Positions 35,273 through 36,835 of a stretch of DNA of 64,000 nucleotides are shown here, piece by piece (positions within the stretch are counted from its first letter, which is position 1; each line of letters opens with the position of its first letter). The notes under the pieces were generated by a model that was given only the letters and a program-made list of their open reading frames with translations, was not told the DNA's origin and searched no databases. This DNA is from a bacterium (lineage in GTDB: Bacteria; Patescibacteriota; Minisyncoccia; Phycocordibacterales; UBA1006). Made by a program: the position numbers and the translations under genes. The stretch spans positions 66,487 to 130,486 of the forward strand of contig JBAWXN010000001.1 of assembly GCA_037144045.1 (NCBI GenBank). The letters are read 5' to 3'.

Positions 35273-36835
35273 AGAGTTTGATCCTAGCTCAGGATGAACG
35301 CTGGCGGCGTGGATAAGGCATGCAAGTCGAACGGAAAAATCTTTCTGAAAGCTTTGAAGTGAAGGGTAGCAATACCTGGAATGAATTTGACGGACGATCT
35401 GATTTTTTAGTGGCAAACGGGGTAGTAACATGTGGGAACATACCCAGAAGTCGAGAATAATCCATCGAAAGGTGGACTAATACTCGATAGTCCCTACGGG
35501 GTAAAGTCTTCGGACGCTTCTGGAATGGCCTGCACGGTATCAGCTAGTTGGTAGTGTAACGGACTACCAAGGCAATGACGCCTAGGGGAGGTGAGAGCCT
35601 GACCCCCACCATTGGAACTGCGACACGGTCCAAACACCTACGGGTGGCTGCAGTCGAGAATCTTCGGCAATGCACGAAAGTGTGACCGAGCGACGCCGCG
35701 TGATTGATGAAGCCCTTAGGGGTGTAAAGATCTTTTATGCGTGAAGAAATTATTGACATTAGCGCATGAATAAGGGGCTCCTAACTCTGTGCCAGCAGGA
35801 GCGGTAATACAGAGGCCCCGAGCGTTATCCGGAATTATTGGGCGTAAAGGGTGCGTAGGTGGTTTTATTAGTCGAATGTTAAAGATCTGGGCTCAACCCA
35901 GGGACGGCATTCGAAACGGTAAGACTCGAGTATGTGAGAGGTGAACGGAACTCATGGAGTAGGGGTGAAATCCGTTGATATCATGGGGAACACCAAATGC
36001 GAAGGCAGTTCACTGGCACATCACTGACACTCAAGCACGAAAGCGTGGGTAGCGAATGGGATTAGATACCCCAGTAGTCCACGCCCTAAACGATCTTCAC
36101 TAGCTATACGGAGTATCGACCCTCTGTGTGGCGTAGCTAACGCGTTAAGTGAAGCGCCTGGGAAGTACGGCCGCAAGGCTAAAACTCAAAGGAATAGACG
36201 GGGACTTGCACAAGCGGTGGATTATGTGGTTTAATTCGACGATAAACGAAGAACCTTACCAGGGTTAGAAATCAAGACGAAGATAGCCAGAAACGGTTAT
36301 CGCCTTCGGGCGGCTTGACAGGTGATGCATGGTCGTCGTCAGTTCGTGGTTTGAATTGTTCCCTTAAGTGGGGTAACGAACGAAACCCTCGTTGTGTGTT
36401 ATATATGTCACACGAGACTGCCCCCTCACTGTTCAGAAATCTTCTTATGAAATTTTTGAAATTGTGAATAGTGAGGGGGGAGGAAGGAGAGGATGACGCC
36501 AGATCAGCATGTCCCTTGATACCCTGGGCTACACACGTAATACAATGGTCACTACAAAGGGCTGCAATACCGTAAGGTGGAGCCAATCCCTAAAAGTGGC
36601 CTCAGTTCAGATTGAGGTCTGAAACTCGACCTCATGAAGCTGGAATCGCTAGTAATCGCAGGTCAGCTATACTGCGGTGAATACGTTCTCAAGTCTTGTA
36701 CTCACCGCCCGTCAATTCAAGGGAGCCGGTAGCACCCGAAGTCTGCGCATCGCGTGGCCTAAGGTGAGATTGGTGACAGGGAATAAGTCGTAACAAGGCA
36801 CGGGTAGCGGAAGCTGTTCGTGGATCAATTCAATT
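35273..36835 (+). rRNA. rrs: 16S ribosomal RNA (divergent; ~45-nt expansion in the h40-41 region; 3' end lacks CCUCC)
   Basis: Begins AGAGTTTGATCCTAGCTCAGGATGAACGCTGGCGGCG. Contains GTGCCAGCAGGAGCGGTAATAC (515 region with a compensatory change) and GTCGTAACAAGG near the end. Terminates ...GTGGATCAATTCAATT. Confidence 0.9.

Follow-up and report, generated by a model that had tools for sequence, protein, structure and literature searches.

How does a ribosome choose its start codons when its 16S ribosomal RNA (rRNA) carries no anti-Shine-Dalgarno (anti-SD) sequence, and what has become of the rRNA positions at which that sequence normally lies? The question is raised by a 16S gene on the forward strand of a 64-kb stretch of contig JBAWXN010000001.1 (64,000 nucleotides (nt), hereafter the window). 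The CCUCC anti-SD in the 3' tail of 16S rRNA is near-universal in bacteria and is among the most conserved RNA elements that they possess. The reading set out below, which taken as a whole we consider very probable, is that of a functional, clade-typical 16S, transcribed as a unit of its own, in a lineage that has lost the anti-SD and in which about half of the genes would be of a leaderless type.

A 16S gene without the CCUCC core

The Rfam model of bacterial small-subunit rRNA, RF00177, matches positions 35266-36835 of the forward strand with 1359.1 bits (cut-off, 50 bits) and over its entire length (1-1533 of 1533, not truncated). The initial annotation had placed the gene at 35273-36835; its end is identical to that of the model, and its start falls 7 nt inside the start found here. 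The score is just as high as those of the 16S genes of relatives (1124-1402 bits). The nearest 16S, at 94.7% identity, is that of a metagenome-assembled genome (MAG) of Candidatus Nomurabacteria from Lake Baikal (L107), the next relatives being at 90% or below. The best matches are MAGs of Ca. Nomurabacteria or Paceibacterota, and the window 16S is nested inside this clade in a tree. The interval 35266-36835 is an intact, full-length 16S rRNA gene of a bacterium of the Parcubacteria, in the candidate phyla radiation (CPR). It is probably the functional, and probably the only, 16S copy of a Nomurabacteria-like member of the Parcubacteria/Paceibacteria.

The 3' end of this gene is aligned as GGAUCAAUUCAAUU, where the model has GAUCACCUCCUUU. 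When RF00177 was run again on the 3' part alone, the posterior probability was high throughout helices 44 and 45 (h44-h45), and the final 14 nt, GGAUCAAUUCAAUU, were aligned to GAUcACCUCCUUu with a posterior probability marked by an asterisk. Helix 45, with its GGAA loop (GGCACGGGTAGCGGAAGCTGTTCGTG, 36797-36822), is kept in all 74 aligned relatives. Since the tail at 36822-36835 (GGAUCAAUUCAAUU; GGATCAATTCAATT) is aligned at the anti-SD positions, the CCUCC core is replaced by AUUCA. RF00177 itself does not require CCUCC. The claim that this is a genuine 16S lacking the CCUCC core, previously made by inspection, is borne out by the full-length match and by the alignment of the tail; in the covariance-model check that had been proposed, the 3' end falls on 36835 exactly, and CCUCC is found neither there nor downstream. 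Indeed, a string search of 36800-37120 found none of CCTCC, CTCC, CCTC and TCCT, and CCTCC is absent from 36700-37200, with none within 260 nt downstream of the 16S.

Twelve nucleotides of the tail, GGAUCAAUUCAA (36822-36833), are 92% complementary to UUGAAUUGUUCC (36351-36362), which lies around h34/h35 within this 16S. The pairing was set aside as probably due to chance: it is one of many pairs of similar length, and the sequences of relatives, seen in passing, appear not to co-vary.

The absence of CCUCC is a trait of the clade. Of the 74 related 16S genes from Parcubacteria/Paceibacteria whose 3' end is complete, 70 lack it, and a CUCCUU tail is kept only in L025 (Kuenenbacteria), L043, L094 and L113 (Peribacteria). 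The other 70 tails read, for example, GGAAUAAUUCAAUUUGAA, GGAUUAAUUCCAAUUGGA, GGAACAUAUCCAAUCGGA or GGAUUAACUCAAAUUGAG. In a crude neighbour-joining tree built from the 16S with the last alignment columns (the tail) excluded, the genes without the anti-SD tail group into one large clade, in which the tail classes track subclades. This suggests that an ancestor of a large Parcubacteria clade lost the CCUCC core; with the core lost, the choice of start codons by SD pairing would be impossible for these ribosomes.

Loss of the anti-SD is itself already published. Tsurumaki et al. (2022, RNA 28:1041; PMC9297842) detected the motif in just 48% of Parcubacteria, found that the group lacking it overlaps the group lacking uL1, and described lineage-specific gaps and insertions in Parcubacteria rRNAs. 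According to two reviews (PMC10582724, PMC12641178), Paceibacteria lack rplA and der, and most CPR bacteria lack era, whose product recognises GAUCACCUCC. The L11-L1 gene cluster is not in the window, where trmD and a GNAT gene, and not the usual L11-L1-L10-L7/L12 cluster, stand before rpoB. The missing anti-SD, the odd primer sites, the extra helix and the separation from 23S described here are clade-typical and largely published. What is added are links to the architecture of the genes and to conserved structure in the trailer, which would be of moderate interest.

Gene starts in the absence of Shine-Dalgarno pairing

In the window, SD-like tetranucleotides at -18 to -4 precede 1 of 47 genes (2%), as against an in-gene background of 9.5%. 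In the 70 relatives without an anti-SD (305 genes) the corresponding figures are 10.5% and 12.5%, and in the anti-SD-bearing relatives they are 26% and 9.5% (n = 19 genes).

What precedes the genes is of another kind. The top upstream pentanucleotides in 351 genes of the clade are TATAA, TAATA and ATAAT, and TATAC, TGCTA and TGGTA (TGnTA) are also enriched; together they make up an extended -10 promoter element. A TANNNT hexamer with a spacer of 6-9 nt stands before 23 of the 47 start ATGs of the window (49%), compared to 9.1% at other offsets (p = 2e-12), and its TG-extended form, TGNTANNNT, is found at 12 starts where 0.4 would be expected. At internal in-frame ATGs (385 in number) the same hexamer occurs at this distance in only 3.4% of cases (Fisher p = 2e-16 against the starts). 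Over the 351 clade genes there is a peak at a spacer of exactly 6 nt, with 57 occurrences against about 9 per position. The window encodes a sigma-70 factor with regions 1.1-4 (20886-22148). ATG is the first codon of 43 of the 49 longest open reading frames (ORFs), and the remaining six have an in-frame ATG 18-87 nt downstream, correctly spaced from a -10 in three of them; every ORF can begin at ATG.

Transcription starts about 7 nt past the -10 hexamer, in the established geometry of promoters. Therefore, messenger RNAs (mRNAs) issuing from a hexamer placed 6-9 nt before the ATG would begin at or beside the AUG. About half of the genes would then be read from an often extended -10 at this distance and yield leaderless mRNAs, as in mammalian mitochondria, and the remaining genes would presumably depend on translational coupling or on unstructured leaders. 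Before several tightly packed genes the hexamer lies within the upstream coding sequence, which suggests that many genes are transcribed singly. In the literature library searched, no paper was found linking leaderless mRNAs to Patescibacteria or the CPR, which is not proof of novelty.

Three observations weigh against a general leaderless scheme that followed from anti-SD loss. No short-spacer -10 precedes about half of the genes, such as rpoB and that for bS2 (rpsB); the anti-SD-bearing control is tiny (19 genes); and a short-spacer -10 is also found in 5 of those 19 genes. The leaderless architecture may thus predate the loss of the anti-SD or be independent of it.

The genes devoid of a short-spacer hexamer, rpoB and rpsB among them, together with the AT-rich composition of the upstream regions, would also suit a scheme in which initiation is SD-independent on mostly leadered mRNAs, A-rich and unstructured as in Bacteroidia, the hexamers being mere AT-rich intergenic sequence. 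We hold this to be unlikely, because the hexamer is sharply positional (57 against about 9 at the 6-nt spacer), includes the TG extension (12 against 0.4 expected), is missing at internal ATGs (3.4%) and is found inside coding sequence ahead of tightly packed genes; besides, the anti-SD is absent here, whereas in Bacteroidia it is sequestered. There is a practical side as well: gene-calling programs guided by SD motifs will put starts in the wrong place in genomes of this kind.

A probable tail-trailer hairpin and 16S transcription unit

The positions formerly occupied by the anti-SD have not drifted freely. The tail and the first bases of the trailer can form a mini hairpin, UUC-AAUU-GAA (36829-36838, forward strand), which spans the 3' end given by the model and is marked out by co-variation of its arms. 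At alignment columns 33-36, the old CUCC positions, the relatives fall into the classes TTCA, TTCC, ATCC, CTCA and CTCC, and each class is followed, 2-5 nt further on, by its own complement: TGAA, GGAA, GGA, TGAG and GGAG, respectively. The complement of the own arm is present in 70% of the sequences, compared to 4% for arms of other classes, and the arm classes map to subclades of the neighbour-joining tree. The difference between TTCAATTGAA and TTCCAATTGGAA amounts to one inserted C:G pair. That the loop varies and the arms stay complementary argues for an RNA hairpin and not for a DNA palindrome.

This comparison of own and cross-class arms was used in place of a free search for the best hairpin in each tail, which gave a mean stem of 4.46 against 4.25 in mononucleotide shuffles of these short, AT-rich sequences. 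The MAFFT alignment of the tails is gapless, and the 3' arms are therefore out of register in it.

Further into the trailer there is a conserved GTCGAT box (36866-36871, forward strand), in a region where relatives can be aligned to about 36875. In a scan within 90 nt of the 16S end, GTCGRT turned up in 48 of 74 Paceibacteria loci, 24-49 nt past that end, compared to 3.9% of random windows, and it is preceded by a variable hairpin with a co-varying base. The exact tail and trailer of the window had no match (0) in metagenome contigs; a relaxed pattern of the two retrieved 18 metagenome relatives, none closer than about 89%.

The relatives that carry an anti-SD share the geometry of the mini hairpin, in the form CUCCUU-UCU-AAGGAG (CUCCUUUCUAAGGAG). 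The tail-trailer hairpin is likely to be an element of the 16S precursor (pre-16S), older than the loss of the anti-SD and serving maturation of the 3' end. In this scheme a 3'-end hairpin of pre-16S would have outlived SD pairing, the former anti-SD positions still co-varying with the first trailer bases. Several facts tell against it. The hairpin has just 3-4 base pairs (bp) in most lineages and is absent in L016, L076, L101, L114 and L117; RNAalifold favours instead a pairing of the UCGAU of the box with AUUGA at the 16S end, in columns that are invariant; and the co-variation of the arms represents a few evolutionary events, not 74 independent ones.

The same co-variation of tail with trailer could be read as meaning that the mature 16S is longer than the model allows, retaining the tail-trailer hairpin, and perhaps the trailer as far as the GTCGAT box, as a new 3'-terminal element occupying the SD-helix site of the platform. 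Conservation of the trailer equals that of the 16S itself as far as about +40 nt, and the GTCGRT box recurs in 48 of the 74 loci. In the bacteria that have been studied, such a 3' arm is trailer, cut away at maturation. By analogy, the 3' arm of the same hairpin geometry (CUCCUUUCUAAGGAG) in anti-SD-bearing relatives would be trailer that is removed; in addition, the hairpin has very few base pairs, and several lineages no longer have it. A longer mature 16S is quite unlikely in our judgement.

The window encodes two exonucleases, one of the RNase R/II family (2383-4455, reverse strand) and an RNase T-like enzyme of the DEDD type (50424-50966, forward strand). Both are candidate enzymes for trimming 16S at its 3' end, many maturation factors being reportedly absent from this lineage.

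Since the tail is conserved within the clade rather than drifting, one might suppose that it has been re-specified, AAUUCAAUU pairing with a new upstream motif resembling AAUUGAAUU in a re-coded SD system. This is highly improbable: in the region -22 to -1 of the 351 genes, every pentanucleotide that could pair with the tail is found at background frequency or less (ratios of 0.28-1.01 relative to in-gene frequencies), and the pairing with the trailer explains the conservation of the tail at least in part. The hypothesis of a new SD was rejected for want of any such enrichment.

The unit in which this 3' end is made would contain the 16S alone. A scan with Rfam models found no 23S or 5S in the whole window, with no large-subunit rRNA hit over 35 kb upstream and 27 kb downstream of the gene, so the 23S gene must lie in another part of the genome. 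No 23S was found beside the 16S of 37 relatives either (19 genome loci, and 18 metagenome loci with up to 13.8 kb of sequence downstream; some of the 37 loci reach 9-14 kb downstream). The initial annotation had described a 16S unlinked from 23S, followed by a spacer of about 220 nt without a transfer RNA (tRNA), a perfect 18-bp hairpin at 37057-37097 and a sugar-transferase gene, and all four elements hold: the spacer measures 221 nt (36836-37056) and has no tRNA, the arms of the hairpin lie at 37057-37074 and 37080-37097, and the next gene matches PF02397.

A candidate 16S promoter is the extended -10 TGcTATGAT at 35043-35051, with TTGCAT 17 nt upstream of it (35023-35028). It lies upstream of the 5' arm of a putative processing stem and is of the TGnTAnnnT type enriched before the genes. 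A consensus scan picks a different candidate, TTGACT-16-TATACT, at 34931-34958. At a distance of 105 nt after glmS there is a terminator-like hairpin with a T run (35008-35026), which overlaps the -35 of the first candidate and has the second promoter-like site upstream of it.

The processing stem is a leader-trailer helix with its 5' arm at 35140-35193 and its 3' arm at 36988-37032, detected as two inverted repeats (I1 and I24; 35159-35193 with 36988-37022, and 35140-35149 with 37023-37032). The main helix covers 35 nt, is 83% complementary and encloses the 16S alone. Pairing leader with trailer in RNAduplex gave a diffuse structure (-89.8 kcal/mol against -65 +/- 7 in shuffles), the inverted-repeat search a clearer helix.

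The 18-bp hairpin (37057-37097) is 100% complementary, has a loop of 5 nt and a T-rich 3' arm, GGGTTGTTTTTGCTTTAC, and sits straight after the processing stem and straight before the -10 box of the next gene. It is likely the intrinsic terminator of the 16S unit; a simple terminator scan did not call it because that scan needs a T run past the stem. In outline, the 16S would be transcribed alone from a promoter near 35043, folded within the leader-trailer helix and terminated at 37057-37097. The sugar-transferase gene beyond it (37105-38448, forward strand; PF02397, E = 2.1e-51) has a start of the leaderless type, with TATAAT at 37105-37110, a 6-nt spacer and the ATG at 37117.

Little of this neighbourhood is conserved in L107, the upstream TGT gene being the only one in common; glmS and the sugar-transferase gene are not conserved neighbours. 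In L061 (2255-2644) and L046 (5548-5867) a gene for RNase P RNA lies within a few kb of the 16S, and none was found in the window.

Structure-preserving traits and comparison with known systems

The body of the gene departs from the usual 16S in ways that keep its structure. In the 530-loop/515 region (35776-35810), GTGCCAGCAGGAGCGG at 35789-35804 faces the partner strand GGCTCCTAACTCTG at 35776-35789, GCC having become GGA and, on the partner, GGC having become UCC. As read from the sequence, U35779, C35780 and C35781 pair with A35800, G35799 and G35798. These positions we take to be 505-507/524-526 in Escherichia coli numbering, so that the pseudoknot of that region is retained by two double changes. 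The exact 22-mer GTGCCAGCAGGAGCGGTAATAC of the 515 region was found in at least 120 contigs of a collection of species-representative genomes, almost all labelled CPR/Patescibacteria (Patescibacteria, Paceibacterota, Parcubacteria, Nomurabacteria, Kaiserbacteria and similar names). In the 338 region (35634-35653, ACACCTACGGGTGGCTGCAG / ACACCUACGGGUGGCUGCAG in the RF00177 alignment) a U-A helix pair has become A-U, and another A has changed to U. That both sites are altered, the 515 region with compensation, had been pointed out in the initial annotation, and stands. Against the primer and probe sequences, the window 16S has 2 mismatches to 515F, 3 to EUB338, 1 to 27F and none to degenerate 341F or to 806R. 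A 16S of this type would be missed or under-counted in amplicon surveys with 515F and with EUB338 probes.

Two segments are enlarged. At 36421-36479 the h40 loop measures 49 nt where RF00177 has 4, forming an expansion hairpin with arms CCCCCTCAC (36421-36429) and GTGAGGGGG (36471-36479). Its folding energy is -33.5 kcal/mol (z = -6.06), a stability reached by 0 of 200 shuffles, in agreement with the extra hairpin first noticed there in place of a short loop. In 47 of 85 relatives h40 is short (about 14-19 nt); the remaining 38 have an enlarged h40 of 40-220 nt, and all the expanded versions are long, stable hairpins of unrelated sequence. In L107 it measures 55 nt and in the window 60 nt. Thus, h40 behaves as a fast-evolving expansion segment. 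The h6 region (35340-35400) holds a further insert, of about 59 nt as opposed to 8 in the model, which had not been noticed before; it is no stabler than its shuffles (z = 0.34) and was not retained as a structured element. We take both inserts, as well as the altered 338 and 515 sites, to be traits of the lineage that preserve the structure.

In some relatives the 16S is interrupted further. Long insertions are found in the decoding-centre region of L125, L126, L136 and L128-L130 (corresponding to 36705/36706 of the window), just before h45 in L137 (36792/36793) and in mid-gene in L051 and L136. Some match the group I intron model RF00028; the window 16S has no such insertion. In the relatives concerned, the covariance model misplaces the 3' end.

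With a tail unlike that of nearly all cultured bacteria and inserts within the gene, a decaying copy or a contig chimeric near 36830, the missing anti-SD being an artefact, might be suspected, but hardly anything is left of this suspicion given a score well within the range of the relatives, compensation both in the 338 helix and in the 530 pseudoknot, tails of this kind in 70 independent assemblies, alignment of relatives across the junction to about 36875, and 5' and 3' flanks that pair with each other. A misassembly at 36830 had been named at the outset as the finding that would undo the claim; the junction sequence, as far as about 36875, is shared by six independent assemblies (L107, L123, L124, L133, L135 and L138), and the 35-nt leader-trailer helix ties one flank to the other.

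As a whole, the window is a housekeeping stretch, with a G+C content of about 40% and long ORFs that follow the standard bacterial code (table 11). Encoded there are an RNase R-like protein, bS16, trmD, rpoB, rpoC, dnaG, rpoD, bS2, MreB/C, TGT, GlmS, UvrA/B and MnmA, with rpoB-rpoC-dnaG-rpoD contiguous at 12245-22148. Some housekeeping proteins are shortened, such as EF-Ts (150 residues; 24689-25141, reverse strand) and alanyl-tRNA synthetase (579 residues; 55824-57563, forward strand), which fits the trend to short proteins reported for the CPR. Of two large proteins of unassigned role, at 57629-60025 and 6488-8254, one has a Peptidase_S74 (endosialidase chaperone) domain and the other a Por secretion C-terminal sorting domain, something one would not expect to meet in the CPR.

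A more ambitious reading would make of these bacteria a class-level clade with mitochondrion-like initiation: no anti-SD, mostly leaderless mRNAs, and many genes, tightly packed ones included, having their own extended -10 abutting the AUG. The old anti-SD positions would have been re-used in the co-varying tail-trailer hairpin, with the GTCGAT box, either as a new 3'-maturation signal or as a retained cis mimic of the SD helix, in lineages mostly lacking Era. We regard this as possible but doubtful. In any case, a large free-standing clade without the anti-SD, and with genes that look leaderless, is a natural experiment on initiation without SD pairing, and bears on the other roles of the 16S tail, such as Era binding and 3'-end maturation.

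For the CPR, 16S genes with insertions or introns and with mismatches to primers, as well as rRNA genes that are not linked, were reportedly described by Brown et al. in 2015 and Brewer et al. in 2020. The window 16S resembles those genes by its 515F mismatches, its expansion inserts and the lack of an adjacent 23S. Introns are known in CPR 16S genes (PMC12641178); unlike these, the window gene has no intron, and its h40 and h6 inserts are expansions of helices and remain part of the RNA. The Parcubacteria subgroup of Tsurumaki et al. is of the same lineage and likewise lacks CCUCCU at the 16S 3' end, but that paper reports only the absence of the motif and calls its consequences unclear; no analysis of mRNA start regions, of the replacement tail or of the trailer was found in it (PMC9297842).

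Bacteroidia, too, have genes without SD motifs and initiate independently of SD pairing, with ribosomes blind to the SD. They keep, however, an intact anti-SD, sequestered by bS21, bS18 and bS6 and used for autoregulation of rpsU and for 16S maturation (PMC13000453), whereas here the sequence itself is gone. A leaderless transcriptome has been described in Mycobacterium tuberculosis (Cortes et al. 2013, cited in PMC12641261). In contrast to the present clade, the leaderless-rich Actinobacteria and Deinococcus have retained the anti-SD, and SD motifs are still used on their leadered genes.

The mRNAs of mammalian mitochondria begin at or beside the AUG. The mammalian mitochondrial 12S rRNA has no anti-SD (PMC10582724), so that mammalian mitochondria combine, as the clade studied here may do, a small-subunit rRNA without anti-SD and leaderless mRNAs. 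They differ from it in that the present case is a free bacterial genome with sigma-70 promoters, where it is the spacing of these promoters that points to leaderless mRNAs.

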